Below are positions 4,866-55,041 of a DNA stretch of 64,000 nt, in pieces. The position numbers and the translations under genes are program-made. The DNA comes from a virus (Duplodnaviria; Heunggongvirae; Uroviricota; Caudoviricetes). Each line of letters starts with the position of its first letter. Position 1 is the first letter of the stretch. A model generated the notes under the pieces. That model did no database searches and was not told the DNA's origin. It worked only from the letters and a program-made list of their open reading frames with translations. Where the stretch lies: IMG/VR virus record IMGVR_UViG_3300017978_000250, positions 1 through 64,000 of that record; one strand, 5' to 3'.

Positions 4866-4866
4866 A

Positions 4867-11398: not shown

Positions 11399-11518
11399 TC
11401 CTTATTGAATAAACAAAACATATATCCAGAGAGCAACGCCACCTAACCAAAAGATTATTTGGTCACGCTTGTGTCTTGCGTTGTGCTTTTTGATATCGTT
11501 TTCTGTCATCATGTGTAT

Positions 11519-21240: not shown

Positions 21241-21670
21241 CTAGTGTAGGCATTTGAAAACCACGAATCATTTGAACCATCACGTGTGATGGAATGTTCT
21301 TACCTGGACGTGATGCTAATCGTTCTTTCAACACAACCAATTCAGGTGTCTTGAACACAACAGCAACATGGTCATAGTCTGGCAACATGTTAAACTTCTT
21401 TCGGCGTGAGCCAATAGTAGTAGATGTTTGGTCCCAGATAATATCCTTACCAGCTTCGCGGGCTCGAACAACTTTTTCAGCCATCAACTTTACAGCAGTT
21501 GGCATGTAGTCGTCAAATACATCAGAGTAAGTGGAACCTACTTCCTTTGCATAGTCTTCTACAAATTCATCAGTGCTAACAACAACACAGTCCTTAGACC
21601 AGTCTTGCAACTTTATCCAAGTACTCTTGCCTGCTGCCGGTACACCGACTAATTGATAACACTTTGTCAT
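21209..21670 (-). CDS. polynucleotide 5'-kinase (P-loop, T4 Pnk kinase-domain-like)
   Basis: Walker A GVPAAGKST; 153 aa. Confidence 0.65.
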   Translation of the reverse strand: MTKCYQLVGVPAAGKSTWIKLQDWSKDCVVVSTDEFVEDYAKEVGSTYSDVFDDYMPTAVKLMAEKVVRAREAGKDIIWDQTSTTIGSRRKKFNMLPDYDHVAVVFKTPELVVLKERLASRPGKNIPSHVMVQMIRGFQMPTLDEGFKEILYA

Positions 21671-26552: not shown

Positions 26553-26618
26553 GAAGCAGGATACATTTTTTCTTTTATACCAAAAAGTTAAAAGTTGCTG
26601 TTAGTATCCTAAAATTTC
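26553..26618 (-). ncRNA. Y-RNA-like stem element (copy iv) in 5' leader of Ro60-like gene
   Basis: 5' UUUUAGGAUACUAACAGCAAC ... 3' GUAUCCUG; AGGAUAC pairs with GUAUCCU; lies between the Ro promoter and the ATG. Confidence 0.5.
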
Positions 26619-26636: not shown

Positions 26637-26665
26637 ATTATAACATCCTTTTGAAATACTGTCTG
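26637..26665 (-). promoter_or_regulatory. sigma70-like promoter for Ro60-like gene (CAGACA-17-TATAAT)
   Basis: Minus strand CAGACA then 17-nt spacer then TATAAT. Confidence 0.5.
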
Positions 26666-36382: not shown

Positions 36383-36449
36383 GCCCCTGTGAGAGGAATT
36401 GAACCTCTACCACCGCGCGCCGTGTATGCTCCCATTACACTACACAGGG
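36383..36449 (-). ncRNA. 67-nt tRNA-like RNA lacking an anticodon arm
   Basis: Perfect acceptor CCCTGTG/CACAGGG, D arm GTGT-AATGGGAGCAT-ACAC, T arm AGAGG-TTCAATT-CCTCT, only 13 nt where anticodon and variable arms should be. Confidence 0.5.
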
Positions 36450-36456
36450 ATTGAAT

Positions 36457-36576
36457 TGGTGCCGCCGGAAGGATTCGAACCTCCATTACTTCCTTGAAAT
36501 GGAATTTTATGTTGCTGTAAGTACTCTTGTCAGAGTAGACCTTTTTAAGCGTCCTAGCCAATTAGACGACAGCGGC
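36457..36576 (-). ncRNA. 120-nt tRNA-like RNA: anticodon arm replaced by about 65-nt insertion carrying UACUUACAGCAAC motif
   Basis: Acceptor GCCGCTG/CGGCGGC plus CCA, D arm GTC-TAATTGGCTAG-GAC, T arm GGAGG-TTCGAAT-CCTTC; inserted hairpin TACTCT-GACA-AGAGTA followed by TACTTACAGCAAC. Confidence 0.5.
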
Positions 36577-36982: not shown

Positions 36983-37113
36983 ATAATATAACAGGATACA
37001 TCTAGTGACCGAGTATGAATCGGTTGCTCTACCTTAGAGCGTATTTGGCAAACGCCAAATGTTGGAATCGAACCAACTGACTTTGTAAGTCGTTGCTGTA
37101 AGTATCCTAAAAC
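36983..37113 (-). ncRNA. Y-RNA-like RNA (copy i) with circularly permuted tRNA-like domain
   Basis: 5' GUUUUAGGAUACUUACAGCAAC; then T arm GTTGG-TTCGATT-CCAAC; acceptor stem closed by loop ATTTGGC-GTTT-GCCAAAT; D arm GCTC/GAGC; anticodon-like arm ACCGA-TTCATAC-TCGGT; 3' GUAUCCUGUUAUA pairs with 5' AGGAUAC; flanked by a tRNA 3' end and a tRNA 5' end. Confidence 0.55.
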
Positions 37114-37188
37114 TGGCGATGCATGGGAGAATCGAACTCCCGTCTCCGGATAGACAATCCGGGATAATGACCATTATATGAATGCACC
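37114..37188 (-). tRNA. tRNA, anticodon GUC-like (Asp?)
   Basis: Anticodon stem CCGGA/TCCGG with loop TTGTCTA, T arm GGGAG-TTCGATT-CTCCC, CCA; AT-rich D arm. Confidence 0.5.
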
Positions 37189-37195
37189 TTAAACT

Positions 37196-37273
37196 TGGCT
37201 CCGTGACTAGGGATCGAACCTAGCTTATTTCTGATTAACAGTCAGACGCCTACACCTTGCTTGCTCTCACGGA
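37196..37273 (-). tRNA. tRNA-Asn(GUU)-like
   Basis: Anticodon stem TCTGA/TCAGA, loop CTGTTAA, T arm CTAGG-TTCGATC-CCTAG, CCA. Confidence 0.55.
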
Positions 37274-37280
37274 ATAAAAT

Positions 37281-37355
37281 TGGTAGCCACGGACAATTTT
37301 GAAATGTCGACCTATCGCTTATCAAGCGAGTGCTCTTCCTCTGAGCTACGCGGCT
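37281..37355 (-). tRNA. tRNA-Ile(GAU)
   Basis: D stem GCTC/GAGC, loop TTGATAA, CCA. Confidence 0.65.
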
Positions 37356-37372
37356 ATATGTTTGGTGCCTCC

Positions 37373-37447
37373 ACCTGGGTTCGAACCAGGGACTCCCACC
37401 TTATCAAGATGATACTCTACCACTGAGTTATAGAGGCATTAATTGTT
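37373..37447 (-). tRNA. tRNA-Ile(GAU)-like (second copy)
   Basis: Loop TTGATAA, T arm CCTGG-TTCGAAC-CCAGG, CCA. Confidence 0.6.
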
Positions 37448-37457
37448 TGGTGGATGT

Positions 37458-37532
37458 AAGTAGATTCGAACTACTGACCTGCTCCGTATGAAGGAGATGC
37501 ACTACCGCTGTGCTATACATCCATTGTATATT
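37458..37532 (-). tRNA. tRNA-Met(CAU)
   Basis: Loop TTCATAC, D stem GCAC/GTGC, T loop TTCGAAT, CCA. Confidence 0.7.
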
Positions 37533-37541
37533 GGTGCGTGA

Positions 37542-37616
37542 TGAAAGGATTGAACTTTCGACCTCTTCAATGTCACTGAAGCGTTCTACCACTGAACTAA
37601 TCACGCATGACAGGAT
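37542..37616 (-). tRNA. tRNA-Val(GAC)
   Basis: Anticodon stem CTTCA/TGAAG with loop GTGACAT, D stem GTTC/GAAC, CCA. Confidence 0.65.
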
Positions 37617-37728
37617 ACATTTACTTTTTGCTGGCTGCTCTACCATTGAGCTACATCCTTTCGGAGATGGGACTCGAACCCACAACAGGCTAGTTGGACA
37701 GTAAAAATTGCTGTTAGTATCCTAAAAC
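37617..37728 (-). ncRNA. Y-RNA-like RNA (copy ii) with permuted tRNA-like domain and GNRA-capped acceptor-like stem
   Basis: 5' GUUUUAGGAUACUAACAGCAAUUUUUACUG; T arm GTGGG-TTCGAGT-CCCAT; stem CATCTCC-GAAA-GGATG; D arm GCTC-AATGGTA-GAGC; 3' GCCAGCAAAAAGUAAAUGUAUCCUGUC pairs back to the 5' end (AGGAUAC/GUAUCCU plus UUUUU/AAAAA); sits exactly between tRNA-Trp 3' end and tRNA-Val 5' end. Confidence 0.55.
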
Positions 37729-38224: not shown

Positions 38225-38300
38225 ATATAAAACAGGATAGAATTTTTACTGGTTGAATTAAAAGTTCAGAGTATAAATGTTGCTGTTACTATCCTAAAAC
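38225..38300 (-). ncRNA. Y-RNA-like stem element (copy iii), no tRNA-like domain
   Basis: 5' GUUUUAGGAUAGUAACAGCAAC ... 3' CUAUCCUGUUUUAUAU; AGGAUAG pairs with CUAUCCU; bounded by the tRNA 3' end at 38301 and the tRNA-Gln 5' end. Confidence 0.5.
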
Positions 38301-38727: not shown

Positions 38728-38801
38728 TGGTGCGGGGTAAGGGAGTTGAACCCTTGACTAAACGTTGGCAACGTTTGATTTTACCGTTAAACTAACCACG
38801 C
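38728..38801 (-). tRNA. tRNA-Gly(GCC)-like (second copy)
   Basis: Perfect anticodon stem AAACG/CGTTT, loop TTGCCAA, T arm AAGGG-TTCAACT-CCCTT, CCA. Confidence 0.6.
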
Positions 38802-38808
38802 ATAAACT

Positions 38809-38883
38809 TGGTAGGGGTGCTTGGAATCGAACCAAGATTAGCGAGTTCAAAGCCCGCGGTGATAACCATTACACTACACCCCA
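38809..38883 (-). tRNA. tRNA-Gln(UUG)-like with U1/U72 mismatch
   Basis: Acceptor TGGGGTG, anticodon stem GCGGG/CTCGC, loop CTTTGAA, T arm CTTGG-TTCGATT-CCAAG, CCA. Confidence 0.6.
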
Positions 38884-39722: not shown

Positions 39723-40973
39723 ATGATATTTAACCCGAGAGACTATTCAGTAATTTTTCTTAGTTTCGATGAACCGAACTGTGAAGAAAACTATCAACAC
39801 CTTTTGACACTTTGCCCCACTGCTCTTAGAGTACATGGAGTAAAGGGTTCAGACACCGCACACAAAGAAGTTGCTAAACTTTCTAAAACTTCTAACGTGA
39901 TTATAGTCGATGGTGATAATTTTGTCAAGCCTGAATTCTTCACTAAGACTTTTAACTTAGTAGATTCAGTGGACTTGAGTACTACTGTTTTAAGTTATAG
40001 TGCTTTCAACCCTGTAAACGGGAACTCTTATGGGAACGGTGGCATCAAAGTCTGGCCCGTTTCCAAGCTACTTTCGATGAGAACACACGAAAATGCGACT
40101 GAGGGAACTAGTGTAGACTTTGACTTTAAGAGCTACTTAGAGCTAAATTTTGTTGGTTCTATCACTGACATTACAGCAAGTCCGTTGCAAGCGTTTAAAG
40201 CTGGGTTCCGTGAAGGATCCAAGCTATGCATGGAAAACAATCAAATAGTCACATACGTAAATGAGATAAACTGGAAGAACTACGAAAGACTATGGCGCTG
40301 GACTCATATTGGTGGTGACGTAGAGAACGGTTTATGGGCAATCTACGGAGCTCGTATGGGCTACTACATGTCAATGGTTCACAGGGGTGACTTTTCTAAG
40401 ATTAAAGATGCTGACCATTTGAAGGCAGTGTTCAACGAAACAACGTTTAACTTAACATCTTTGTTTACCGAAGTGAACAAACTTACCCCGTTGATTCGCA
40501 AGGCAACAATGGATAACAGATTTGTTGACATATATGGAATCGAAGAAAGCAAAGAATTCAGAGAGAAAGTTCCCTGCACGATTCGTGGGTTACAGGATTT
40601 CATCAAGTATCAATACAACGAGACACCGCAAGTGTTCTTTGTGGGCGCCGGGTCTGATGAAAATTTCAATAGGCTGTTGCAAAAAGAACCCAAAGCAACA
40701 AGAGTAGATTCATATCTCAGTGCCGCACAACAGGCAACTACAGATTATTTTTGGGTAGTCGATTCAAATCAATATATAGTAGATAGATTCGAATTTGAAT
40801 TCAACGTTCCATTCTACGACAACCCAAAAACTAGAGTGTGGCGAAATCAACGTAATGCAAATGATACAGTATACGGAGAGAACGGAGTAAAGTTGTTGAA
40901 TAGATTTTCAACAATCATAGGCGAACAACTACCGGTCGAATCTATATTTGAAATCAGTAGCATCAATGACTAA
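39723..40973 (+). CDS. hypothetical protein, possible nucleotide-sugar (DxD) transferase
   Basis: Start set at MIFNPRDY; IIVDGDNFV DxD-like motif; function weakly supported. Confidence 0.5.
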   Translation: MIFNPRDYSVIFLSFDEPNCEENYQHLLTLCPTALRVHGVKGSDTAHKEVAKLSKTSNVIIVDGDNFVKPEFFTKTFNLVDSVDLSTTVLSYSAFNPVNGNSYGNGGIKVWPVSKLLSMRTHENATEGTSVDFDFKSYLELNFVGSITDITASPLQAFKAGFREGSKLCMENNQIVTYVNEINWKNYERLWRWTHIGGDVENGLWAIYGARMGYYMSMVHRGDFSKIKDADHLKAVFNETTFNLTSLFTEVNKLTPLIRKATMDNRFVDIYGIEESKEFREKVPCTIRGLQDFIKYQYNETPQVFFVGAGSDENFNRLLQKEPKATRVDSYLSAAQQATTDYFWVVDSNQYIVDRFEFEFNVPFYDNPKTRVWRNQRNANDTVYGENGVKLLNRFSTIIGEQLPVESIFEISSIND

Positions 40974-41937
40974 CCCAATAAACTTTTCTGAAATCCCATT
41001 TGATAAGATAGTAAAATTCGGACAAGACACAATGCTAGACAAAGACTTGTTTAGCGTTAGTTGGATTCTGGGTAGATTCTGCAACTACAAATGCAGCTAT
41101 TGCTGGCCCTATGCTAACAGTCAAACACCTGACCATCAAGAGTTAGAAGTCTATACACGTGCGATAGACGAGATTAGATTCCAAGCTGCGAACAACGGGT
41201 TCACTAAGTTTCACTGGAGCTTTAGTGGGGGTGAGCCCACAGCATACAAACACTTGCCCGTACTAATGAGTAAGGTCTTGTATGATAGTGTTCACATGAC
41301 AACTAACTTGAGCCCAGGCATTCAATGGTGGGATAGATGGTTAGAGAACACACAACTAAGCAGACGCCGTAGTCTCACCGCAAGCTATCATCACGAGTTT
41401 GCAAACGAACAAGAGTTTGGAGACAAGATACTTCACTTGATGAAGAACAATGTATTTGTCACTGTAAATCAAGTTATGGTCCCTGGACACTTTGATGAAC
41501 TATATGAACGTTGTGAACGTTTCCATAAGCGTGGCATCAACGTAACACTAAAGCCACAGAGCAATGAACAAGCAAACGGGATAGTTGATGGTTACACTGA
41601 CGTTATGATACACAAGATGCGTACAGGGTTTCCGCAACAAGTAAACGAACAAGAACTATTGCAAGTTAAACTAATAGACGACACTAAGAAAGTGTGGTGG
41701 CTTGACCAAGCTGAACGTTTCAATAGTTTTGGGTTCAACAAGTTCAATGGCTGGACTTGCAATGCTGGATATCAAAGTGTTATAATAAGGGGTAATGAAG
41801 TTAAACGAGCATACAGTTGCCATGCAGCAGAATTAGGAACATTAGATAACTTTACGCTATTTGATAGCCCTGAGCGATGTGTTACACCTACATGTGTTAG
41901 TTCCGCAGACAGTAAGATACCAAAATGGAAAGACTAA
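40948..41937 (+). CDS. radical SAM enzyme with SPASM/twitch-like C-terminal Cys cluster (paralog group A)
   Basis: CNYKCSYCW CxxxCxxC, FSGGEPT, C-terminal WTCNAGY...SCH...CVTPTC cysteines. Confidence 0.8.
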   Translation: MKSVASMTNPINFSEIPFDKIVKFGQDTMLDKDLFSVSWILGRFCNYKCSYCWPYANSQTPDHQELEVYTRAIDEIRFQAANNGFTKFHWSFSGGEPTAYKHLPVLMSKVLYDSVHMTTNLSPGIQWWDRWLENTQLSRRRSLTASYHHEFANEQEFGDKILHLMKNNVFVTVNQVMVPGHFDELYERCERFHKRGINVTLKPQSNEQANGIVDGYTDVMIHKMRTGFPQQVNEQELLQVKLIDDTKKVWWLDQAERFNSFGFNKFNGWTCNAGYQSVIIRGNEVKRAYSCHAAELGTLDNFTLFDSPERCVTPTCVSSADSKIPKWKD

Positions 41938-42599
41938 TAGTTTTCGGATGCTCACTTTCATATGGTCATGGATTGTCCGATTGTTTCATCCCGCCAAACC
42001 TGCCCGGTGATAAGCATAGCAATCTAGGTTGGCCGTCAATTGTAGCAAAGCACATGAATAGGGTCTGCATCAATAAATCTAGTCCAGGTTCTAGCAACAA
42101 ACGAATATGGAACGAGGTAATTAACTTTGAGTACCACCCAAATGACATAGTAATTATTCAATGGAGTTTCATAGACCGCACTTCAATTATAAAAGTAAAT
42201 AACATAGAAGACATTGGTCCATGGACTAACCATACATTCTACAGCGACATGTATGATGAGAATGATAGCTTGCTAATGTCAAAGCTATTTGTTAATCATA
42301 GCAATATGTTTTTGCTATCAAAGAATATCAAACTATACAACTTAGTGCCAGGTAAAGAAGAACTAGCGTTACTAAAATTTAATGATACTACTACAGACCA
42401 TATACCTGTATATCTTAGTAAACTTAGAACACTATATCCATTTGCATTAGACAACCGACACCCAGGTATTGAATGCCAAGAAGTGTATAGCAAAAAAATA
42501 CTAGACTATCTCAATATACCAAACGATATGCCATATCACGAACCACATAATATGTGTTTTCGAATAAAACGATATTTAAAATTTTTGAGGGACAATTAA
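41925..42599 (+). CDS. SGNH/GDSL-like hydrolase
   Basis: N-terminal VFGCSLSYGHGL (GDS-like nucleophile block) and C-terminal DNRH (DxxH) block. Confidence 0.5.
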   Translation: MERLIVFGCSLSYGHGLSDCFIPPNLPGDKHSNLGWPSIVAKHMNRVCINKSSPGSSNKRIWNEVINFEYHPNDIVIIQWSFIDRTSIIKVNNIEDIGPWTNHTFYSDMYDENDSLLMSKLFVNHSNMFLLSKNIKLYNLVPGKEELALLKFNDTTTDHIPVYLSKLRTLYPFALDNRHPGIECQEVYSKKILDYLNIPNDMPYHEPHNMCFRIKRYLKFLRDN

Positions 42600-43210
42600 T
42601 GTTAATTGATACTGAACATTTACATCATTGGATGAACGCAGTGCGTATCTCCAATAACCCCATGCGTACATTAGACGCATTCTGGGGTGGACAAATCAAA
42701 AGTAAAGAATGGCTTATTGAACGTTTAGAAAGTGTTGTTGACCACACTGAGCCAGTAACGATTGAGATTCACGGCGGGTGGGTCGGAACACTAGCAAGTA
42801 TGTTGTTCCAATCTAAACTAAACATTAAGAGTATTCGCAGTGTTGACCTTGACCCATACGTTCAACACATTTCGGAAGAGATGAATCGTATTGAATATCA
42901 TCAGGGTAGATTCTCAGCTATCACGGCTGACATGTGTAACCTAACAAACTATTCTGCTGACATTGTAATCAATACAAGTTGTGAGCATATCACACAAGAA
43001 CAGTATGACAAATGGTTAGAGAATACACCTGAAAATTCTATGGTCATAGCACAAGGCAATAACTACAAGATAGACGAGCATATCCGAATCAGTGAAGACA
43101 TAGATGAATTTGAACAACAATGTCATCTCACACGCAAGTATGTAGGTACATTGCGTCTTCCACTATATGCCCGTTACATGATTATAGGTTACAAAAATGT
43201 ACAAGTTTAA
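42599..43210 (+). CDS. putative SAM-dependent methyltransferase
   Basis: Start at MLIDTEH after GAGGGA RBS; IEIHGGWVG glycine-rich motif-I-like segment; acidic motif-II-like DIVINTSCEH. Confidence 0.45.
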   Translation: MLIDTEHLHHWMNAVRISNNPMRTLDAFWGGQIKSKEWLIERLESVVDHTEPVTIEIHGGWVGTLASMLFQSKLNIKSIRSVDLDPYVQHISEEMNRIEYHQGRFSAITADMCNLTNYSADIVINTSCEHITQEQYDKWLENTPENSMVIAQGNNYKIDEHIRISEDIDEFEQQCHLTRKYVGTLRLPLYARYMIIGYKNVQV

Positions 43211-44288
43211 TGAATTAAATATTCTGGATATTGAAATCACTAGCAACTGCCAAGCAAGTTGCCCCATGTGCGCCAGAAACCACCACGGTGGCATGGAGAA
43301 CCCTTTACTTAATGTAAAGAGTATTTCAATTGACGGCTTTAAAACTGTTTGCCCTACCGAGTTCATTCAGCAACTAAAGACAATCTCATTCTGTGGTAAC
43401 TACGGTGATCCTATTCTCAACAAAGAACTAGTTGAAATGGTTGAGTACGCCAAAGAGACTAATCCGAATTTAAGTATAGAAGTTCACACAAATGGAAGTG
43501 CAAGAACCACTGAGTGGTGGACAAGATTAGCAAAGGCTCTACCCGAAAATCACCTAATTCATTTTGCGTTAGATGGGTTAGCAGACACACATCACTTGCA
43601 TAGAATTGGTACAGACTTTAACAAGATTATTGAGAATGCAAAGGCGTTTATAGCTGCCGGTGGAAGAGCAAGATGGGTGTACATCACGTTCAAACACAAT
43701 GAGCATCAGCTTGAAGAAGCACGTGAGATGAGCAAGGAACTAGGCTTTGAGAGTTTCCAAGAAAAGCAATCAAGTAGATTCATCACCGAGCCCTGGTTTG
43801 ATGTATTAGACCGTGACGGTAATGTAACTCATAGACTTGAGAGTCCTACTGAACAAAAACTAATCTTCATTGACCGCAAGACTGTTGAGAACTACAAGCA
43901 AATTCTTGGTTCAGCAACAATCGACTGTCAAGTAAAAAAGTCTAAAAGCGTTTACATAGATGCTAATGGACATCTTTTCCCGTGCTGTTATACAGGGGCT
44001 GTTCCTTATATTCACATAAAACCATCTCAATTAGTTTACAACTTTCAACAAGATAATAGACGCACGTTTTTTGAAATGGTTGACCGTTTCGGTGGCATGG
44101 ATTTCTTTAATCTATATAAACACAATATCAAAGATGTCATTGACAGTGAAGAATGGCAAACTATTTGGGGCGATGTTCTAGAAAACAATAAAATGTACAT
44201 GTGTGCTAGAGCATGCGGAAAATTTCCTAAGCCAGTTATAAGTCAAGGTCGTGACCAATTTTTAAAGCTAGATAACTTCAATGAGTAA
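43197..44288 (+). CDS. radical SAM/SPASM-domain enzyme (group B)
   Basis: CQASCPMC CxxxCxxC; FCGNYGDP; C-terminal CQV...FPCCY...CARACGK SPASM-like cluster. Confidence 0.8.
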   Translation: MYKFNELNILDIEITSNCQASCPMCARNHHGGMENPLLNVKSISIDGFKTVCPTEFIQQLKTISFCGNYGDPILNKELVEMVEYAKETNPNLSIEVHTNGSARTTEWWTRLAKALPENHLIHFALDGLADTHHLHRIGTDFNKIIENAKAFIAAGGRARWVYITFKHNEHQLEEAREMSKELGFESFQEKQSSRFITEPWFDVLDRDGNVTHRLESPTEQKLIFIDRKTVENYKQILGSATIDCQVKKSKSVYIDANGHLFPCCYTGAVPYIHIKPSQLVYNFQQDNRRTFFEMVDRFGGMDFFNLYKHNIKDVIDSEEWQTIWGDVLENNKMYMCARACGKFPKPVISQGRDQFLKLDNFNE

Positions 44289-45321
44289 AATCATAAAAAT
44301 AGAATCAACCCAACAGTCTCATATCTTATCAATCAGATGGAATCCTAACAACGTTTGTAATTACAAATGTGAATACTGTTGGCCTGATAACAATGCGGGA
44401 GATTCTCAATCCCCCAAAGACTTAGACCTTACTATTAAAAATTTCAATCATATGATTGAACGTTACAGAACAGAATTAGGAAAAACTAAAATACATCTAA
44501 GTATAGCTGGTGGCGAACCCACACTGTGGAAAGACCTTGCATTGTTCATAGAAGCAATTAAAAAAGAGAATGATATCTATTTCACTTTACTTAGTAATGG
44601 ATCAAGAACACTTAGATGGTGGAAAGAGTATGGACATCTGATAGACAATGCTCACTTGTCTTACCACATAGCACAAGCTGACCCTGACCACATGATTGCG
44701 GTAGCAGATACACTATTTGAACTAAACAAAAAAGTCACAGTAAAAGTATTGATGGATCGTAAGCATTGGCAAGCGGGCTTAGATGTTATTGAATACATGA
44801 AGAAGAATAGCAAACACAAATGGTTCATCATGTCCGGTGAAGTCATTGAACCAGAGGTTGTACAGATAGCAAACATCAAAGTTATCAATGCTGACGATAA
44901 ACAACTGACACCTAAGCAAAAAAAGTTCCTAAAGAATCCACTAAAGAGATTACCAAATCTGTTATGGATATGGAAAAATAGAAAACTAATCTTCGAGGGA
45001 CAAATGAGATTGTACGAGAGTGTGGCTCATTTTGAAGACAAGAAAACAGTCAAAGCAAAGTCTAATACGTATATCAACAGAAACTGGAACAACTTCGAAG
45101 GGTGGAGTTGCGATATAGGATTAGATAACGTTTACATACATTGGGACGGATCAATCAAGGGTGCTTGCAACCAAACTATATTTGGTTTGGATCATTCATT
45201 CAATATTCTAGATGAGAACTTCGTAGATACGTTTGATCCTAAATTTCAACCTTCAATTTGCACTAAGAAGAACTGCTATTGTTCTCCTGAAACACACTTA
45301 TCAAAGCGCAGACTTAGTTAA
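44281..45321 (+). CDS. radical SAM/SPASM enzyme (paralog group A)
   Basis: CNYKCEYCW, IAGGEPTLW, C-terminal WSCDIG...GACNQ...CTKKNCYC. Confidence 0.8.
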   Translation: MSKIIKIESTQQSHILSIRWNPNNVCNYKCEYCWPDNNAGDSQSPKDLDLTIKNFNHMIERYRTELGKTKIHLSIAGGEPTLWKDLALFIEAIKKENDIYFTLLSNGSRTLRWWKEYGHLIDNAHLSYHIAQADPDHMIAVADTLFELNKKVTVKVLMDRKHWQAGLDVIEYMKKNSKHKWFIMSGEVIEPEVVQIANIKVINADDKQLTPKQKKFLKNPLKRLPNLLWIWKNRKLIFEGQMRLYESVAHFEDKKTVKAKSNTYINRNWNNFEGWSCDIGLDNVYIHWDGSIKGACNQTIFGLDHSFNILDENFVDTFDPKFQPSICTKKNCYCSPETHLSKRRLS

Positions 45322-46197
45322 AGGAATATCGGCTGCACATGTGCAGTAGTTTCTATCACATATCACGGGCTCAACAGGGACAGTGAATGAATCGTTATAG
45401 ATATTCCCTAGACTGCCACCCACACGACAAGTAGCACGATGAACTTCCCCGTCCCAGTTAATCATCAGTGATTCTAAGCCCGCGTTACACTTCCAACCCT
45501 TGTATTGATTCTTGTGAAGTTTGATTACATCGTTGGCATGATACATTTCTTCTTTGTCTTTATAGAACAAGATAGTATTTGGACCCACAGTAGAATCACT
45601 AGCTAAGATATAGTCTAAGTCTTTCTGGTCATACTTCATATCGTCAAACAAATCGTGGTCGCCCTCTGTCCAGCGAACTCTACGAAGGTTATACTTGATA
45701 TTGTTTGCTTCTAGTATATGTACTGCTGAACGAACCTCATTCATTTTATCCTGATGACACATAACATTAACTAAGATATGTGCCCCGTGAATCTGTTCAT
45801 GTACTGTTTTAATAGTGTACAATACTTCTGCCCAATTATGCTCAAAGTGTAGACTGAACACGTATTGGTCAAGCAATTGCAATGTGTACCATAATGGCTT
45901 ACGTGTACCGTTAGTAGTCATACTCAGCCACATGTTCTTACTCTTGATATAACTAACTAACCGTTCAATGTCAGGGTGTACCGCCGGCTCTCCACCTGTT
46001 AAACTTAATCGAATAGGCTTTCCAATTTGAGCTAGTCTGTCTACTGTGTTTTGTAGTGTGTAATAATCAGTATGAGGGCTAAAGTTATCGTGGATATAAC
46101 TAGGACAGTAACTACAGTCGTAGTTACAACGCTTGCCCAAGTTCCATTCTACCTTGATACTATCGCCGTGATTCCATCTACTTTTTACTTTATACAT
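45301..46197 (-). CDS. radical SAM/SPASM enzyme (paralog group A)
   Basis: CNYDCSYCP, LTGGEPAVH, C-terminal WKCNAG...CRVGG...CDRNYCTCAAD. Confidence 0.8.
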   Translation of the reverse strand: MYKVKSRWNHGDSIKVEWNLGKRCNYDCSYCPSYIHDNFSPHTDYYTLQNTVDRLAQIGKPIRLSLTGGEPAVHPDIERLVSYIKSKNMWLSMTTNGTRKPLWYTLQLLDQYVFSLHFEHNWAEVLYTIKTVHEQIHGAHILVNVMCHQDKMNEVRSAVHILEANNIKYNLRRVRWTEGDHDLFDDMKYDQKDLDYILASDSTVGPNTILFYKDKEEMYHANDVIKLHKNQYKGWKCNAGLESLMINWDGEVHRATCRVGGSLGNIYNDSFTVPVEPVICDRNYCTCAADIPLTKSAL

Positions 46198-47000
46198 ACA
46201 ACACTTTCTACCTTATTATACTTTAATAGGGTGTCTTTGTCAACTACTGTAATCAAGTCTGCAACCGGAATCAACCCGATATTCAAGTTCTTAAATGGAA
46301 ACTTCTTAAACTTTGCCCAAACATTGATAACTCTCATTCTTAACCAATGAAGTATACTGTTAGATGAGGGTCCAAACTTTACCATAAAGTCTGCGCTATA
46401 ATGGGTTTGAGGTCTAATAGCCTCTGCTATCTTATCATTGTCTTTAAACGCATCTAACACAGTTTTCCCCACATGACAGTAGTTAACGTAAACTGTGCCT
46501 TGTTTCCACTTACATGTAAAGTGTTTTAAGTCTGATGAATCTAATTCACATCTTAGTCTATCCTTAAATGTAACCACTAGTGTTGGGTGCTTGTTAGATG
46601 TTCTAATATTTGATTCCATCTGATGGATCACAATGTTGAACTGGTCTACTGCTCTTTGTACATGCTCGGGGGCACTGTTGTACCAATCAGTGCCCACAGT
46701 TACTTCTCCCCGCAAGTCTTCAAAATATTTGTGAAGATAGTTCATATCGTCCTGAGTAGAATCTACACTAACTTTTCTATCAATGATACGTTGATATCGG
46801 TTGATGATATCAATCTGGGTATTCAATCGTTCGACATAAGTTTCTTTAGTCGTTCCCCAATTAGAAAATCTATCTGTTTCGTATAACGTATAGTTCTTAG
46901 CTACTTCATCAAACCATTTATGTGCAATAGGTGTGTCACGAACGCTGAACTCTAACTCAAGGTTATCAGTGTCATTAGCAATTGTTAACACTAGTTTCAT
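46185..47000 (-). CDS. hypothetical protein
   Basis: 271-aa ORF between radical SAM genes. Confidence 0.55.
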   Translation of the reverse strand: MKLVLTIANDTDNLELEFSVRDTPIAHKWFDEVAKNYTLYETDRFSNWGTTKETYVERLNTQIDIINRYQRIIDRKVSVDSTQDDMNYLHKYFEDLRGEVTVGTDWYNSAPEHVQRAVDQFNIVIHQMESNIRTSNKHPTLVVTFKDRLRCELDSSDLKHFTCKWKQGTVYVNYCHVGKTVLDAFKDNDKIAEAIRPQTHYSADFMVKFGPSSNSILHWLRMRVINVWAKFKKFPFKNLNIGLIPVADLITVVDKDTLLKYNKVESVVCIK

Positions 47001-48244
47001 ATAAACTCTTTAAACTCAGGCGTTACCGTAGTAAATGATTGACTACGAGTTTTATCTAGTCTATGGTTGAATTCGACACAATCACTCCACTTGTCTGACT
47101 GGTCACGTGCATTAAGATAATTGATGTTATCTTGTATTTGCCCTAATGTGTATGATAATAGCTGTGGGTGTTGCTTAACCATTTTAAAGTCTTTTACTTT
47201 AGACTTGATGTTCTCTAAACGCTCAACTGCTAAGTCTTTAAGTTCTCTAGGCAATACTTGTGCAGACAATACTTTAGGATACTCTACACGATGGGTGTGA
47301 AAGACAATACCCAAGTCATCCAAGAAGTATTCAATCATCTTATCTAATACAAGCACGTTAGACACTTGCACAGTTACAGCTCCCACGATACGGCTAATGT
47401 TTGAGATAGATTGAATCTCTTTGATATTAGCTATCATTGTGTCCCAATTAGCATTTCCACGAACATATTCGTAACTATCACCAATGCCATCAATAGACAC
47501 GTTCACGGCTACTGATTTGAACTTAGGCCAGTATTCGTATATGTTACGTGAGCCTTTACCCAGCATACTTAAATTAGTAGCATATTTAATTTCAATCTGA
47601 TGTCCATATTGACTGAGCATATCTAAGATACGATAGTGTTGCGGGTCCATTAAGGGCTCACCACCAGCAAACTCTACTCTACGGAAGTGAGGCAATAGCT
47701 TCTCTAATGAACTCCACCACTCAGGGTTATCTTGGAACTTATCTAAGTGGGGCTTGTTCTCTAAGTTGTGTTCTTCTACAATAGCGTACATGATATTGTT
47801 TTCGTTCTTATAGAACTCTTTAACTTCACTCCAGTCGTTCCACGATGTACTGTCCATTGGATGACACATTCTGCACTTTAAATTGCATAGATTGTTCAAC
47901 TTTAATTCCATAGTAGGAATCTCGAAGGGCATAACTTCTTGTAAGACAGTGTTAGGATATAAGTTAATTCGTGCTTCGGGAATCTTACCCGAGATATGTC
48001 GCATACGTAATGATTCAACACCCTGATCCTCTAAGCTAAAGCATGGCTCACACTCGCTAGGACGCTCGTCATTTAACACTTGACGACGGATACGTTGCAT
48101 TGTATCGTTATTCCAGATTTCTTCTAACGTATTATCTTGTATATTACCCACAGGGTGACTACGACAGCAAGCACATATTGCTCCATCTTCTCGTGTAGCT
48201 AACCCAGTGAAGGGATGCATACAGAATGTTTTACTTTGATTCAT
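46997..48244 (-). CDS. radical SAM enzyme with N-terminal Cys-rich extension (group C)
   Basis: N-terminal FCMHPF...CACCRS...CEPC; CNLKCRMC CxxxCxxC; FAGGEPLMD. Confidence 0.8.
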   Translation of the reverse strand: MNQSKTFCMHPFTGLATREDGAICACCRSHPVGNIQDNTLEEIWNNDTMQRIRRQVLNDERPSECEPCFSLEDQGVESLRMRHISGKIPEARINLYPNTVLQEVMPFEIPTMELKLNNLCNLKCRMCHPMDSTSWNDWSEVKEFYKNENNIMYAIVEEHNLENKPHLDKFQDNPEWWSSLEKLLPHFRRVEFAGGEPLMDPQHYRILDMLSQYGHQIEIKYATNLSMLGKGSRNIYEYWPKFKSVAVNVSIDGIGDSYEYVRGNANWDTMIANIKEIQSISNISRIVGAVTVQVSNVLVLDKMIEYFLDDLGIVFHTHRVEYPKVLSAQVLPRELKDLAVERLENIKSKVKDFKMVKQHPQLLSYTLGQIQDNINYLNARDQSDKWSDCVEFNHRLDKTRSQSFTTVTPEFKEFI

Positions 48245-49097
48245 TTTCCAAGTACCTTAATAATGGACTGACACCCACGGGCTGATTATCTTTTAATGCT
48301 AGATAAATTGATTTAGTAGGGGTTAAATTAAAGTCCCTGCATACTTTATAATAATTATTACCATGCTTATTCCATAAGTAATCTACGGGGAACTTTCTAA
48401 CAAAATGTAATCCAATCATACTTAATGCACGATTGTTCATCCTAAAGTCATTCATTATTGTAACACTATCGGGTTCTGTTTGTCTAGTGTATCGTAGCCC
48501 GATTCTATTCCAACCCAATCCCAAACCCTTGCTTAGACTTATTCCCACTGACTTGATACTTGGGTGGCTAAAATCAAAGTCAATATCTCTACAACATGTT
48601 ACCCAAGCTCCGTCAATATGTACGTCTACTTTCTTCTCTAGTGCTTCGTCTAGTATGTCTGTCATGTGTTCGTGCTTTGCCCCAATTCTGGGAAAGGGCA
48701 TTGCTATGATTATGGGTAAGTTTTTAACTAAGCTACCCGGCTCAACATAGTAGATGCAACGCTTTAAACGTTCATGGTAACGATAATCCCCATTTAACAC
48801 TTGGGGAGGGTTATCGTGCATCATATAGATATTATCTATATATTGAGTACACCCGTTTATAATGTCAACACGGGTAAAGTCTTCAATACCCGTTAATGTA
48901 TTCAAGTTACTATTAAAGATATAGTCGTGTGCTTCACGTTTGAAATTGTCATATACACTGTCTGTAATGTCTTTATCTAAGTAGCCACTCAGTACTTCTT
49001 GTATTGTCTTTTCAATTAAGTTATCTGTTAACGGACTTGGACGTTCAATTTCTAAGAATTTGTCCGAATATTCTGTAGCCACTCTAATGCGATTCAT
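48231..49097 (-). CDS. hypothetical protein
   Basis: 288-aa ORF; no confident motif. Confidence 0.55.
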   Translation of the reverse strand: MNRIRVATEYSDKFLEIERPSPLTDNLIEKTIQEVLSGYLDKDITDSVYDNFKREAHDYIFNSNLNTLTGIEDFTRVDIINGCTQYIDNIYMMHDNPPQVLNGDYRYHERLKRCIYYVEPGSLVKNLPIIIAMPFPRIGAKHEHMTDILDEALEKKVDVHIDGAWVTCCRDIDFDFSHPSIKSVGISLSKGLGLGWNRIGLRYTRQTEPDSVTIMNDFRMNNRALSMIGLHFVRKFPVDYLWNKHGNNYYKVCRDFNLTPTKSIYLALKDNQPVGVSPLLRYLENESK

Positions 49098-49137
49098 TGA
49101 AATATTTATAGAACAGTCCCGTAGATTAAATATTTTG

Positions 49138-50568
49138 ATGAATAAAACTTTCTGGATGCAACCCGCTGAGACTCAAATAGGTAAATGGCAACAACAAATC
49201 AAAGACGTTTCTGGATCAAACAGCTTCTGTGTTTTACCCTGGATTCACTTAGCCACTAGACCCAATGGTGATATGCGTATCTGCTGTGTTGCAAACGCAT
49301 CAGGGGCAGACACTGGGGATTATACTGTAGGGTTAGTTAAAATGGAAGACGGTGAACCCGCTAACTTTGCTAAAGACTTACCCACAGAAGCATTCAACAA
49401 TGATTACATGAAGTCAGTACGTAAGACTATGCTTGAAGGCAAAGTTCCTGCTAGTTGTACTAAGTGCTTTAAAGAAGAGGAAGAGGGTATTGCTAGTAAG
49501 CGTATCTGGGAGACAGGAACTTGGTACTTACAAGAACAATTAGATATACAAGAACTAATTAAAGAAACAGAAGAAGACGGAACTGTTCCATATAAGTTAA
49601 GATATCTTGATTTACGTTTAGGACATACTTGTAATTTAAAGTGTGTCATGTGCAGCCCGCACGACTCTAGCTTGTGGGTGTCTGAACACAAGAAGATTAT
49701 TCCTCTAATACAAAGCCCATTGATTCAAAAGCAAATGGCTTGGGAACCAGGATCGTTTAATAATCAATGGCATGAGAACCCTGAGTTCTGGGATCAAGTG
49801 TACGACCAAATCCCTAACATTAAACAGTTATACTTTGCGGGTGGTGAACCTCTATTAATTAAAGAACACAAAACATTCTTATTAGAGATTATTAAGCGAG
49901 GATATGCAGATAAGATTAGCTTACGTTATAACAGTAATGGTATCTTAGTCAATGACGAGATTATTGAGATTTGGGAACAGTTTAAGAAAGTTAAAGTGGG
50001 TATTAGTCTTGACGGTTTAGGAGAAAGAGTTGGATATATTCGTTATCCAACAGACTTTAAAACAGTAGAGAAAAACATCTGGCGCTTAGAGCAAACTAGC
50101 GATAAGATACAAACAAACATTGCATTAGCTGTACAGATATTGAATATCAAACACATCCCAGACTTTATCAAGTGGAAAGTCATGTCAGGATTTAAGAAGT
50201 TAAACTTAGATAAGAATGCTGCGGGTCAAACAGCAGGTGGCGGCTTATGCGGAGTTCATCTATTATGGATTCCAACGTGGTTAAGTCTACGTGTATTGCC
50301 CAAAGAAGACAAACTACATGTACGTGAGTTGTTTAGTGAACTAAAACAATGGCTGTGGGATAACTATACTCAAGACGATGAATTCTGGAAAGTTAACCCC
50401 TATGGGTGGAAACGTTGGGAGGGTATATTAGACTGGATGGACGCAGAAGACCATACTAATCTACTTCCAGACTTCCGTGAGTATATTACTACACTAGACA
50501 AACAACGTAAGACAGACTTTAAAGAAGTATTCCCAGAGCTTGGTCATTTATTATTATCCGATAAGTGA
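49138..50568 (+). CDS. radical SAM enzyme with N-terminal Cys-rich extension (group C paralog)
   Basis: FCVLPW...CCVAN...CTKC; CNLKCVMC; FAGGEPLLI; start moved to MNKTFW to avoid a divergent start overlap. Confidence 0.75.
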   Translation: MNKTFWMQPAETQIGKWQQQIKDVSGSNSFCVLPWIHLATRPNGDMRICCVANASGADTGDYTVGLVKMEDGEPANFAKDLPTEAFNNDYMKSVRKTMLEGKVPASCTKCFKEEEEGIASKRIWETGTWYLQEQLDIQELIKETEEDGTVPYKLRYLDLRLGHTCNLKCVMCSPHDSSLWVSEHKKIIPLIQSPLIQKQMAWEPGSFNNQWHENPEFWDQVYDQIPNIKQLYFAGGEPLLIKEHKTFLLEIIKRGYADKISLRYNSNGILVNDEIIEIWEQFKKVKVGISLDGLGERVGYIRYPTDFKTVEKNIWRLEQTSDKIQTNIALAVQILNIKHIPDFIKWKVMSGFKKLNLDKNAAGQTAGGGLCGVHLLWIPTWLSLRVLPKEDKLHVRELFSELKQWLWDNYTQDDEFWKVNPYGWKRWEGILDWMDAEDHTNLLPDFREYITTLDKQRKTDFKEVFPELGHLLLSDK

Positions 50569-50584
50569 CTCGATAAATATCAAG

Positions 50585-51265
50585 ATGCTAGTCAAGACGA
50601 ATCATTCAGTTCCATTGCATCTAATTAATACTGCTAGGGAAGAATTTAATTTTACAGAGTTTAGAACTTCAATTAATAAACCCACAGGAAACTTCTTTTA
50701 CGATCCATGGGAAATTAAAGATGAGTTTAAAAATACTATCTGGGAACAACTGTTAGATACGTTGCCCTACACTGTGGGTGAAGCAAGAGTTATTAATCTT
50801 AAAATGGGTACTTGTTATCAAAGTCACAGTGACATTGATGATAGATATCACTTAAACATTCAGGGTGATATATCCTACTTAGTTAACCTTGACACTGACA
50901 CAATGCACAGAGTTACTAACGATGGGTTTTGGTACGATTTAGACGCTGGATTTAGACACTCAGCAGTTAACGTGGGTGTAGAGTACAGACTTCAACTAGT
51001 TGTTAGGAAATTACTATTAAACAACGAAGTTTCTAACCCCACTAATATCACTATTAAATCCCCTCTATCTAATGTTGATAGAACAAGATTCATGTTTGAC
51101 AATCAACTTAGTGGCATATTAAATAAGTACAATAAAACTAATATCATTAACAAGTTCAATCCTGCCGTTGACGGATTATCCGTAAGTATGACAATTAACT
51201 CAGATTACATAAGCGAACTAGAAAGTTTGTTGCCCCCAAATTTTTACATTGAAAGAATAACATGA
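50585..51265 (+). CDS. cupin / aspartyl-asparaginyl beta-hydroxylase-like oxygenase (HxD...H)
   Basis: QSHSDIDDRYH ... FRHSAVN; HxD plus distal His. Confidence 0.5.
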   Translation: MLVKTNHSVPLHLINTAREEFNFTEFRTSINKPTGNFFYDPWEIKDEFKNTIWEQLLDTLPYTVGEARVINLKMGTCYQSHSDIDDRYHLNIQGDISYLVNLDTDTMHRVTNDGFWYDLDAGFRHSAVNVGVEYRLQLVVRKLLLNNEVSNPTNITIKSPLSNVDRTRFMFDNQLSGILNKYNKTNIINKFNPAVDGLSVSMTINSDYISELESLLPPNFYIERIT

Positions 51266-51948
51266 TTGACAACACTAACTGGGAATTTATCCGCAAAATA
51301 GAAGAAGGATATGAATGCTCAACTAACGTACTATACGTTCCCACAATAAGCCCAGAGAAAGATAAAATGTGTATGCACTTCACGGAAGATGCAGCAGAAT
51401 ACATGAGGGGTAGCTGTGTTCCTCGCACCCCTGAATTAATGGAGACTTTTTTCCAGCGTGAATTAAAATACTTAACACTATTTCAAGGAAAGCCATGGTG
51501 CCCTGAGATATTTGACGTTGATCCTGTCGAACGAAAGATTCTCGTAGAATTCAATAAAGAGAGTCTTAATAAGCCTATTAGGACTGAGAGCAGGTCGTTA
51601 GATAGTGAGTTCCCAACTTGGAAACAAGATTTATTCGAAATTATCAAGGATGTACACGACTCAGGTTATATCAAGTCTTCTTTATACCCTCACTGTTTCT
51701 TTTATACTAACTCAGGACAAATGAAGATGATTGATTACTATGCAACCATAGAAAAAGATGATACTTTACTTCATAAGAGTTTAATTGAGCCAATTATCGG
51801 TGTTGATTCTCATCAACGATTTGTTGAAGTGAAGGAAGGGGATTATTATCAAATGAGGGATCATTTTAAAAACTCATTGAAGACTTGGATTAAATGGCCT
51901 GGGGATCCCTTGCCTGAGTTCTTTGAAACGATTTTTGGTAATAAATGA
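51262..51948 (+). CDS. hypothetical protein (paralog of 59420-60109)
   Basis: Shared motif SLYPHCFFY..G.MKMIDYYA versus SLHPSSYFIVDGKLKSMNYFFA. Confidence 0.55.
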   Translation: MIDNTNWEFIRKIEEGYECSTNVLYVPTISPEKDKMCMHFTEDAAEYMRGSCVPRTPELMETFFQRELKYLTLFQGKPWCPEIFDVDPVERKILVEFNKESLNKPIRTESRSLDSEFPTWKQDLFEIIKDVHDSGYIKSSLYPHCFFYTNSGQMKMIDYYATIEKDDTLLHKSLIEPIIGVDSHQRFVEVKEGDYYQMRDHFKNSLKTWIKWPGDPLPEFFETIFGNK

Positions 51949-53411: not shown

Positions 53412-53412
53412 G

Positions 53413-53985
53413 ATGAACTTTAAAAACGCAAAATTCGTAGATATTGAAATCCCAATCGATTGGCAATCATTACTAGAAAATGTGAAGCCGCAACAAGGTG
53501 TAGAGATTACAACAGACCCAGCAATTTGGAGAATGGAAGTACCCGCTTACACAGAGATTCTTAATATATGGGATAAGGCTAACTATCCTAATGATGCAGT
53601 TAAATGGATTAACTACTATCCCGGGCAACATTACTCTGAGGATGATATTGATAGAACGTTATGTCAGTATTTAAATGTCAAATATCGCAGGTCTTGGCTT
53701 AGTAGAATCGACCCGGGATATTCTGCACCATGGCATTGGGATGTTGAAGATGATGCTGAGGAAGAAGAAAATGCACTGCGTTTCAGTGTATTCTTAGGAG
53801 ACGGAAAACTCGGACATATCTTTATCTTAGGTGGAGAGAGTGGAGAACCCGGCAACGAAGACTACTTTATCAATATGAAGCATGGTTCTATCATTGAATG
53901 GAATAACTATCATAATTGGCACATTGGGGCAAACATCGGTTTACAACCAAAGTATATGTACCATCTCAAGGCAACTCGCTTGTGA
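53413..53985 (+). CDS. cupin / Asp-beta-hydroxylase-like oxygenase
   Basis: APWHWDVEDD ... HIGAN; HxD...H arrangement. Confidence 0.5.
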   Translation: MNFKNAKFVDIEIPIDWQSLLENVKPQQGVEITTDPAIWRMEVPAYTEILNIWDKANYPNDAVKWINYYPGQHYSEDDIDRTLCQYLNVKYRRSWLSRIDPGYSAPWHWDVEDDAEEEENALRFSVFLGDGKLGHIFILGGESGEPGNEDYFINMKHGSIIEWNNYHNWHIGANIGLQPKYMYHLKATRL

Positions 53986-55040: not shown

Positions 55041-55041
55041 A

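Follow-up and report, generated by a model that had tools for sequence, protein, structure and literature searches.

Two RNA elements within a phage tRNA array, here named copy i and copy ii, carry a tRNA-like domain with the 3' half of the tRNA placed ahead of the 5' half and with the termini of the molecule in a long stem and not at the acceptor stem. They are encoded on the minus strand of a 64,000-nucleotide (nt) stretch of DNA from a virus of the Caudoviricetes (IMG/VR record IMGVR_UViG_3300017978_000250, positions 1 to 64,000; hereafter the window). Predicted folds, a covariance model built from other viruses and covariation among relatives all support this permuted order, and elements with the same stem-and-bulge module are associated with tRNA arrays and with the gene for a Ro-like protein in other phages. 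Particles of Ro60 and Y RNA are conserved from bacteria to humans. We consider it probable that copies i and ii are Y-type RNAs that are excised from the transcript of the tRNA array, are bound by the Ro-like protein through a terminal stem and an ACAGCAA bulge, and show a tRNA mimic with a closed acceptor end to a tRNA-recognising partner.

The window holds 44 tRNA genes in one minus-strand array (24.4–38.9 kilobases, kb). A 17-nt motif, TAGGATACTAACAGCAA, occurs at four sites in the window when up to three mismatches are allowed, all of them on the minus strand and against a chance expectation of 0.18 (Table 1). At each site the seven bases after the T (AGGATAC or AGGATAG) have an exact complement 47–110 nt downstream, indicating pairing between the two ends of every element. 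On both sides of copies i and ii, tRNAs lie 5–10 nt away, and the 5' flank of the copies, GUUUU, is conserved; the remaining two sites belong to short Y-like RNAs, copies iii and iv. The stem of copy iii, AGGAUAG/CUAUCCU, shows a compensated change from C-G to G-C, and its loop corresponds to the anticodon of tRNA-Lys UUU. Two other ACAGCAA sequences in the window were rejected as elements, one at 29069 inside a small open reading frame (ORF) and one at 39430 that has no closing stem. We also rejected a CRISPR-like reading of the repeated GTTTTAGGATAC motif, given its irregular spacing (572 and 615 nt, with one copy 11 kb off) and the tRNA genes between the copies. Comparison of the region with GenBank phage DNA gave tRNA-sized matches only and no close relative.

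A sequence-only reading of positions 36983–37728 had proposed T-arm, acceptor-like, D-arm and anticodon-like helices for these two RNAs, and the helices that it named are all present on the minus strand within that interval. For copy i, the minimum free energy and centroid structures both consist of an 8-base-pair (bp) terminal stem around five hairpins, which include every named arm. The fold has a z-score of –5.1, and none of 200 shuffled sequences folded as well. The closed acceptor hairpin abuts the T arm with no gap and is followed by a 2-nt spacer before the D arm. In copy i this spacer reads AC (37041–37042) and U is the first D-loop base (37036), whereas the majority of relatives show UA and A at these places, so copy i may have exchanged the usual U8-A14 tertiary pair for A8-U14. 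We un-permuted copy i by opening the loop of the 7-bp hairpin, joining the ends and trimming the linker to a 4-nt variable loop, and ARAGORN then called a tRNA-Met(CAT) with every arm of canonical length. In native order, neither copy i nor copy ii was called by ARAGORN or by the Rfam tRNA model. Copy i is at most 71% identical to the tRNAs of the window, which excludes the possibility that it is a recent copy of one of them. Among the relatives sampled, the four unique ones of the same class carry other anticodons (UAU, CCA and, twice, GAA).

In copy ii, the same terminal stem as in copy i and a UAACAGCAA bulge lead into a second helix, a 5-bp helix, the T arm, a 3-bp hairpin capped by GAAA and the D arm. 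The 5-bp helix, CUAGC/GCCAG with one A·C mismatch, lies at the position of the anticodon stem, and there is no anticodon arm. The GAAA-capped hairpin that had been described as an acceptor stem, CATCTCC, does exist, although its 'CAU' belongs to the T stem and only 3 bp are left (UCC-GAAA-GGA). Likewise, the interval proposed for folding copy ii, 37617–37728, stops short of 37612, the end of the terminal stem's 3' strand, and so cuts that strand off, whereas the corrected ends give the expected arms. Copy ii matches the Rfam YrlA model (RF02553) over the entire model (31.8 bits, E = 7e-5), and relatives likewise match it at full length, with 31–44 bits.

An exact-pattern scan found the 17-nt motif in 106 viral contigs. 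We extracted 136 occurrences, 133 of which have a closing complementary 7-mer within 300 nt, and obtained 104 unique elements of two sizes, 47–64 nt and about 106–130 nt. A parse anchored on the T arm looked for a strict architecture, in which the T arm directly adjoins a 7-bp hairpin and a short spacer leads on to a D arm of 4 bp whose loop contains GG. It was present in 37 of the 51 long unique elements (73%), compared with 2.2% when the sequence after the T arm was shuffled. In MAFFT alignments of the cores, the three helices are 95.7–99.7% paired, against 74–75% for shuffled sequences and 33–47% when the partner strand was slid. Changes on both sides occur in 13 of the 16 pairs, including all seven pairs of the closed hairpin; one covariation count undercounts two pairs owing to a register shift in MAFFT at hairpins with 5-nt loops. 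The columns for U8, A14, G18 G19, the T-loop UUCRA and C61 are invariant or nearly so in the relatives.

For copy i, a covariance model made from 18 cores, none of them from the window (model R2), gave 64.8 bits (E ~1e-13), and for copy ii it gave 45.7 bits (E ~3e-9); a second model, R1, included the window copies, whose R1 scores hold by construction. The next R2 matches score at most 32 bits and are ordinary tRNA-tRNA junctions, where a T arm and the D arm of the following tRNA stand together without a closed hairpin. Such junctions are matched by a T-hairpin-D model at 20–35 bits, for example at 28212–28272, 37414–37475 and 38778–38836 on the minus strand. This background offers a route by which the arrangement could arise, being consistent with permuted modules whose 3' half came from one tRNA and whose 5' half came from the next in tandem, and it also leaves copies i and ii clearly distinct from the junctions.

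The elements can be sorted by layout. Class C1, the YrlA layout to which copy ii belongs, has after the terminal stem a second helix, then a 5-bp helix in place of the anticodon stem, and then the T arm, hairpin and D arm, with a closed hairpin of 0 to more than 7 bp. In class C2, an anticodon arm and a 5-nt variable loop come before the T arm, so that the breakpoint falls between the D arm and the anticodon arm. Class C3, made up of copy i and, among the elements sampled, its four unique relatives, has a small hairpin before the T arm and an anticodon arm after the D arm, with the breakpoint in the variable region. A few elements of 90–98 nt (class B) are not permuted and have the terminal stem in place of the acceptor stem. 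Un-permutation yielded an ARAGORN tRNA for 21 of the 24 elements with a parsed 7-nt-loop arm (three as tRNA-???, a register error), with anticodons GAU, UAU, UCU, UGA, UAA, GCA, GAA, CCA and CAU; in native order, one of the 51 long elements was called. An anticodon-loop signature, meaning a 7-nt loop with U second and a purine sixth, was also seen in 12 of 52 short elements, compared with 0.7% of shuffles. The distal modules span everything from a simple hairpin to a whole tRNA, all on one stem/ACAGCAA handle, and the family shows the paired ends, bulged stem and variable distal module that characterize Y RNAs in general. The module that these RNAs share, a covarying terminal stem with an invariant ACAGCAA bulge, appears to be new; no paper describing them was found in a literature search that lacked most subscription journals and the Chen 2014 supplements, and an earlier description is possible.

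The same module was found in cultured phages. We scanned seven lineages that encode the Ro-like protein for a 7-bp stem, ACAGCAA within 0–3 nt and a closing strand within 170 nt. Elements with the stem and NACAGCAA were present in all seven, at one to three per locus (chance, 0.15–0.65), beside the gene or in the adjoining tRNA array; a few further hits that overlap coding sequence are probably due to chance. Felixounavirus humlepung has three in its array (record positions 10722–10788, 11276–11343 and 11364–11487), one of which carries a tRNA module (R1, 54.2 bits), and Listeria phage LMLPA3 has three in tandem directly upstream of the Ro-like gene. Directly downstream of that gene lie three tandem elements in Mycobacteriophage MsGreen, the middle one with a tRNA module (R1, 52.8 bits; Rfam YrlA, 39.3 bits), and three in Staphylococcus phage S-CoN_Ph2. 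Vibrio phage K491 has one in its array, Campylobacter phage CP8 two between array and Ro-like gene, and Bacillus phage Tsamsa three, one with a tRNA module. With relatives in 106 viral contigs and in every cultured lineage sampled, the arrangement is not unusual for a phage, contrary to the earlier claim. The terminal stems differ by lineage yet pair (AGGAUAC/GUAUCCU, UGGACAC/GUGUCCA, GGACCCC/GGGGUCC, AGGAAUC/GAUUCCU, AGACCAA/UUGGUCU) while ACAGCAA stays fixed, as would be expected if a protein recognizes the element. The Felixounavirus locus lacks the exact 16-mer motif, and its element was found only with the structure model and the relaxed stem/ACAGCAA scan. That stretch is conserved in 243 phage records, in which it is unannotated, labeled 'hypothetical protein' or, in one record, called tRNA-Thr. 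In Vibrio phage K491, a 110-nt element at 3483–3592 (plus strand) combines the stem/ACAGCAA handle and a T arm with a hairpin, CUGAG-UUGGUAU-CUCAG, like a fused acceptor and D arm, and looks like a further variant architecture.

The presumed protein partner is encoded in the window by a 472-amino-acid (aa) ORF for which Pfam returned only DUF2828, DUF7788 and a weak VWA_2 match. An AlphaFold2 model of this protein has an N-terminal helical repeat and a C-terminal alpha/beta domain, and a Foldseek comparison with the PDB ranked three full-length Ro proteins highest (D. radiodurans Rsr, E = 1e-6; Xenopus Ro; human Ro60). The helical-repeat ring and C-terminal vWA domain of the Ro60/TROVE fold can be recognized in the model. 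Homologs number at least 7,939 in the protein collection, and the protein is present in 710 GenBank phage genomes; those of cluster L mycobacteriophages (tblastn E values of 1e-61 to 1e-70) are annotated 'Ro-like RNA binding protein' by SEA-PHAGES. The literature that we found on DUF2828 consists of plant and tardigrade papers only. Of 132 elements at the metagenomic loci, 109 have a tRNA of a same-strand array no more than 100 nt away, and a DUF2828 gene is present in 61 of 107 sequences, within the available DNA. A distance of 30 nt separates copy iv from the start codon of the Ro-like gene downstream of it, and a promoter-like site (26637–26665, minus strand; CAGACA-17-TATAAT plus an upstream TG) lies immediately 5' of copy iv, so that this short Y-like hairpin would form the 5' leader of the Ro-like mRNA, and autoregulation through it is possible. 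Twenty elements at other loci lie, like copy iv, within 150 nt upstream of a DUF2828 gene.

Genes for RNA repair accompany the Ro-like gene. Downstream of it, the window encodes a polynucleotide-kinase-type P-loop kinase and a T4 Rnl1-type RNA ligase, and also has a subthreshold phosphatase-like match. RtcB, an RNA ligase and a phosphoesterase come after the Ro-like gene in the Listeria phage, and mycobacteriophage LeBron encodes a Ro-like protein, a polynucleotide kinase and an RNA ligase. The bacterial rsr-yrlA-rtcBA arrangement is paralleled by this pairing of a phage Ro-like gene with RNA-repair genes.

RNAs of this kind are already known, also in phages, and the permutation itself is not the novelty. 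YrlA, known from Salmonella, M. smegmatis and further bacteria and phages, has a permuted-tRNA-like distal module and no anticodon loop (Chen et al. 2014; Wang et al. 2018), and the proposal that the window RNAs have a YrlA-type arrangement agrees with its published description (Wang et al. 2018). More than 250 bacteria and phages were reported to have YrlA RNAs close to genes for TROVE-domain Ro60; YrlA is modified by TruB and DusA and is bound by Ro60 in vivo. Like YrlA, the phage RNAs have ends that form a long stem, a distal order of T arm, closed acceptor-like hairpin and D arm, and genes located with that of a Ro-type (in the phages, Ro-like) ring protein, often with short sister RNAs (YrlB in bacteria) and RNA-repair genes. 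The acceptor hairpin also varies in length in both. The M. smegmatis YrlA, with a 7-bp acceptor stem, is cleaved by RNase P and has CCA added to it (PMC4201824), and by analogy the 7-bp hairpin of copy i is predicted to be an RNase P substrate. In YrlA the anticodon stem runs into the Ro-binding stem; in copy ii the 5-bp helix at the corresponding position leads through the second helix to the terminal stem, whereas copy i has a separate anticodon arm of 5 bp and 7 nt. Unlike YrlA, the phage family has the invariant ACAGCAA bulge as its stem-proximal motif, a DUF2828/DUF7788 protein that lacks a Pfam TROVE match as its presumed partner, and genes that sit inside phage tRNA arrays; many members, copy i among them, keep a full anticodon arm, at either of two positions.

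Other systems share some of these features. The phiRo60 protein of Thermus phage phiLo binds two Y-like RNAs encoded beside its gene and also host PNPase (NAR 2025, PMC12135203). The resemblance to our family lies in a Ro-like ring protein encoded by a phage and, next to its gene, at least two Y-like RNAs with a stem-bulge-stem module. In phiLo this module is bound by the protein, and the authors proposed that a host RNA enzyme is hijacked. In contrast, phiRo60 is a recognizable TROVE protein, its RNAs Yrl1 and Yrl2 have a CGAA bulge motif, and there is no tRNA-array context; the paper contains neither the term 'tRNA-like' nor 'YrlA'. The T-loop/D-loop elbow used for recognition by tRNA enzymes recurs in tmRNA, including two-piece permuted forms, in viral 3' tRNA-like structures and in mascRNA, but these have an open acceptor end with CCA, no Ro-binding stem and no Ro-like partner.

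Within the Y-type RNA reading, copies i and ii would be transcribed as part of the polycistronic minus-strand array and freed by the processing that releases the neighboring tRNAs. The paired ends and the adjacent single-stranded NACAGCAA bulge would form the binding site for the Ro-like ring protein, and the distal module would fold into the L-shape of a tRNA with a loop-closed acceptor end, so that the RNA as made could not be aminoacylated. This module may serve as a handle or bait for a tRNA-recognising factor, tethering it to the Ro-like protein much as Y RNA links Ro60 to PNPase. With a kinase and an Rnl1 ligase nearby (RtcB or a ligase elsewhere), the complex might act in tRNA surveillance or repair or in countering host defenses directed at tRNA. 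Phage Bas63 is a Felixounavirus. Its Ro60-like protein gp130, encoded directly upstream of tRNA genes, counters the Ppl defense (bioRxiv 10.1101/2024.10.10.617714). From the gene position given in that preprint we infer that gp130 is the product of the DUF2828 gene, Bas63 not being confirmed by name among the 243 Felixounavirus-type records. A more specific proposal, which we hold only tentatively and regard as rather unlikely, is a modular display in which the Ro-like ring is loaded through the stem/ACAGCAA handle with interchangeable heads that bait or tether tRNA-acting host immune effectors or nucleases. Such a head could be just an anticodon arm, an elbow of a tRNA or an entire permuted tRNA, the anticodons of which vary.

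Several observations weigh against reading copies i and ii as Y-type RNAs. Their Rfam YrlA scores, 31.8 bits for copy ii and 18.8 bits for the core of copy i, do not reach the gathering score of 69, and every tested relative also falls under it (31–44 bits, the highest being 43.7). The stem and bulge differ from the published Ro-binding helix, and the YrlA alignment of copy ii has non-canonical pairs throughout the stem region and does not reproduce the conserved Ro60-binding helix. On the protein side, the Ro-like ORF has no Pfam TROVE match even at E ≤ 10, and neither phmmer with the single sequence nor a profile search found Ro60 among PDB sequences, so the link to Ro60 comes from fold comparison and not from sequence search; the AlphaFold2 model that was compared is itself modest (mean confidence, pLDDT, 61; TM, a structural similarity score, about 0.3). 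Copies i and ii share a strand block with the Ro-like gene and are 10.5–11.2 kb from it, and only the short copy iv adjoins this gene. With its right ends, the fold of copy ii is not thermodynamically unusual on its own (z = –1.3), and it is the comparison to its relatives that supports copy ii. A single exact 17-mer served to retrieve every metagenomic member, which means that the terminal stem could not vary within that set. The covariation alignments were built from sequences that had passed a pairing-based parser, which inflates the percentage paired. This concern is addressed by the parser's shuffle control and by the independent model. For every member, transcription, processing, protein binding and function are what we infer.

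We weighed four other explanations, all of them less likely than the Y-type RNA reading. The elements could be free-standing decoys whose tRNA-shaped modules (entire permuted tRNAs, elbows or anticodon arms) soak up host nucleases or other tRNA-targeting defense proteins, with the closed acceptor and terminal stem merely stabilizing them and the Ro-like protein dispensable. The anticodon arms would suit this role, being canonical (5 bp and 7 nt, with U33 and R37), varied in anticodon (CAU, UAU, GAA, CCA, UCU, GAU, UGA, GCA and others) and duplicating tRNAs already in the array; the signature in the short elements and the nearby tRNA repair genes fit as well. However, the invariant ACAGCAA, the covarying stem and the strict co-occurrence with the Ro-like gene over seven lineages point to a dedicated protein partner, and many members, including copy ii and class C1, have no anticodon arm, which makes decoys unlikely. 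If instead the elements were processing or punctuation signals, that is, structured spacers that guide RNase cleavage or stabilize the precursor with no function in trans, their embedding in arrays close to the flanking tRNAs and their conserved GUUUU flank would be explained. Yet only three of the roughly 44 spacers in the window's array hold an element, the Staphylococcus, Listeria and mycobacteriophage elements adjoin the Ro-like gene and do not lie between tRNAs, and punctuation would have no need of so elaborate a tRNA-like fold, with its covariation and its conserved tertiary-contact residues. We regard this explanation as improbable.

Permuted tRNA genes proper deserve separate comment. 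In algae and archaea, permuted precursors are circularized at a bulge-helix-bulge by the splicing endonuclease and a ligase and mature to working tRNAs. To our knowledge, bacteria lack that splicing endonuclease. Such genes were reportedly described by Soma and colleagues in 2007 in Cyanidioschyzon merolae, other algae and archaea. They resemble copy i in having the 3' half upstream of the 5' half, acceptor strands joined by a short sequence and a canonical cloverleaf on un-permuting. By this explanation, RNase P, 3' trimming and CCA addition would open the acceptor loop, the Y stem would be removed or kept as a clamp, and copy i would yield a functional or split tRNA. The tRNA-Met(CAT) cloverleaf of copy i, the rarity of native compared with un-permuted ARAGORN calls, the 7-bp acceptor stem as an RNase P determinant and the ligase and kinase genes nearby all favor it. 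The junction argues otherwise, because copies i and ii have no bulge-helix-bulge there and instead an 8-bp stem with a one-sided 9–10-nt bulge, conserved and resembling a protein-binding site, and the same stem/ACAGCAA module caps short sister RNAs that have no tRNA parts. Moreover, copy ii and its class lack an anticodon loop, the acceptor loop GUUU of copy i encodes no CCA, the array already holds three other CAU tRNAs, and the breakpoint moves between the D/anticodon junction and the variable region from class to class. A genuine permuted tRNA gene is, on this evidence, very improbable. Least credible of all are decaying remnants, in which deletions or rearrangements in a tandem array left a T arm beside the D arm of the following tRNA. 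The core model does match ordinary tRNA-tRNA junctions, but copies i and ii score 14–33 bits above them, the two acceptor strands are complementary, closed by a 3–5-nt loop and covarying at all seven positions, and more than 100 contigs as well as distant phage lineages show the same architecture together with a common motif that is foreign to tRNA. Covariation and conservation already contradict this explanation.

Table 1. Positions in the window of the predicted Y-like RNAs, their parts and associated genes.
Feature	Position	Strand	Description or support
17-nt motif, copy i	37093–37109	–	
17-nt motif, copy ii	37708–37724	–	
17-nt motif, copy iii	38280–38296	–	
17-nt motif, copy iv	26595–26611	–	
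Copy i, Y-like RNA with complete circularly permuted tRNA	36993–37108	–	fold, un-permuted ARAGORN call, model R2
Copy i terminal stem	37102–37108 / 36993–36999	–	AGGAUAC / GUAUCCU
Copy i bulge	37093–37101	–	UUACAGCAA
Copy i small hairpin	37079–37091	–	
Copy i T arm	37061–37077	–	GUUGG-UUCGAUU-CCAAC; T-loop residues invariant in relatives
Copy i closed acceptor hairpin, 7 bp	37043–37060	–	AUUUGGC-GUUU-GCCAAAU; all 7 pairs covary in relatives
Copy i D arm	37026–37040	–	GCUC-UAAGGUA-GAGC; loop GG invariant
Copy i anticodon arm, 5 bp/7 nt	37008–37024	–	ACCGA-UUCAUAC-UCGGU (U33, CAU, A37)
Copy ii, YrlA-like Y RNA	37612–37723	–	Rfam YrlA alignment, model R2, class alignment
Copy ii T arm	37667–37683	–	GUGGG-UUCGAGU-CCCAU
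Copy ii D arm	37637–37651	–	GCUC-AAUGGUA-GAGC
Copy iii, short Y-like RNA	38234–38295	–	UAACAGCAA bulge; anticodon-like loop CUUUUAA on the apical hairpin
Copy iv, short Y-like RNA	26558–26610	–	fold z = –3.1
Candidate fifth, non-permuted member	36445–36575	–	tRNA frame: 8–9-bp acceptor stem, T arm GGAGG-UUCGAAU-CCUUC, 3' CCA
Ro-like protein gene, 472 aa	25110–26528	–	DUF2828 + DUF7788; helical repeat + vWA-like fold
P-loop kinase, polynucleotide-kinase type	21209–21670	–	AAA_33; downstream of Ro-like gene
T4 Rnl1-type RNA ligase	20299–21240	–	downstream of Ro-like gene

The window contains two more candidates for the family. The tRNA frame listed last among the RNAs in Table 1 has an insertion of about 60 nt with AGAGUACUUACAGCAAC, ACAGCAA at 36512–36518 and a hairpin with a 7-nt loop. 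ARAGORN did not call this frame; weak homologs of it occur at two viral loci (L060 and L015), and it may be a non-permuted chimera of a tRNA and the Y motif. In the gap between tRNA-Asp and tRNA-Cys (33456–33543, minus strand), an orphan T arm, GCUAG-UUCGAUU-CUAGC, and a D-arm-like hairpin stand between complementary flanks, UGAAGAUAAG and CUUACUUCA. This region has no ACAGCAA, scores 23.8 bits with the core model and has a fold that is not significant; it may be a degenerate permuted element.

Other features of the tRNA array and window were noted. A GOLLD RNA (31568–32033, minus strand; 208 bits with the full model) lies within the array, with a tRNA-Lys(CTT) at 31898–31970 embedded in it. 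Listeria phage LMLPA3 has a ROOL-like match (10464–11015, plus strand; 89 bits, gathering score 99.1) in its tRNA array about 1 kb upstream of the Ro-like gene, so large ornate RNAs accompany the same array and Ro-like neighborhood in unrelated phages. An HNH endonuclease ORF (34786–35418, minus strand) also lies inside the array of the window. Elsewhere, 40948–59365 holds at least ten radical-SAM ORFs on both strands, several with SPASM or B12-binding domains, which is unusual for a phage and unrelated to the Y-like RNAs. Genes for NAD salvage, a nicotinamide phosphoribosyltransferase and a fusion of nicotinamide mononucleotide adenylyltransferase with NUDIX, are found at 2682–5886 (minus strand).

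For annotation, these findings matter because the Ro-like protein is so widely encoded, in 710 GenBank phage genomes, and the RNA-bearing stretch is unannotated or otherwise labeled in the 243 Felixounavirus-type records. The family also occurs in genetically tractable phages, among them Felixounavirus, Listeria, Staphylococcus, Bacillus and cluster L mycobacteriophages, and offers natural variation that could be informative on the role of the tRNA-like module of Y RNAs, with the same handle bearing nothing, an anticodon arm, an elbow or a whole permuted tRNA. The Ro-like protein of Bas63 has an anti-defense phenotype, and its proposed partner RNAs had no known location before. If the display proposal were true, these phages would encode an RNA-protein anti-defense machine, with the action of Bas63 gp130 against Ppl as its first phenotype. 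The interest of the elements lies less in permutation than in an apparently unannotated family of RNA partners for a very common phage protein that has such a phenotype.

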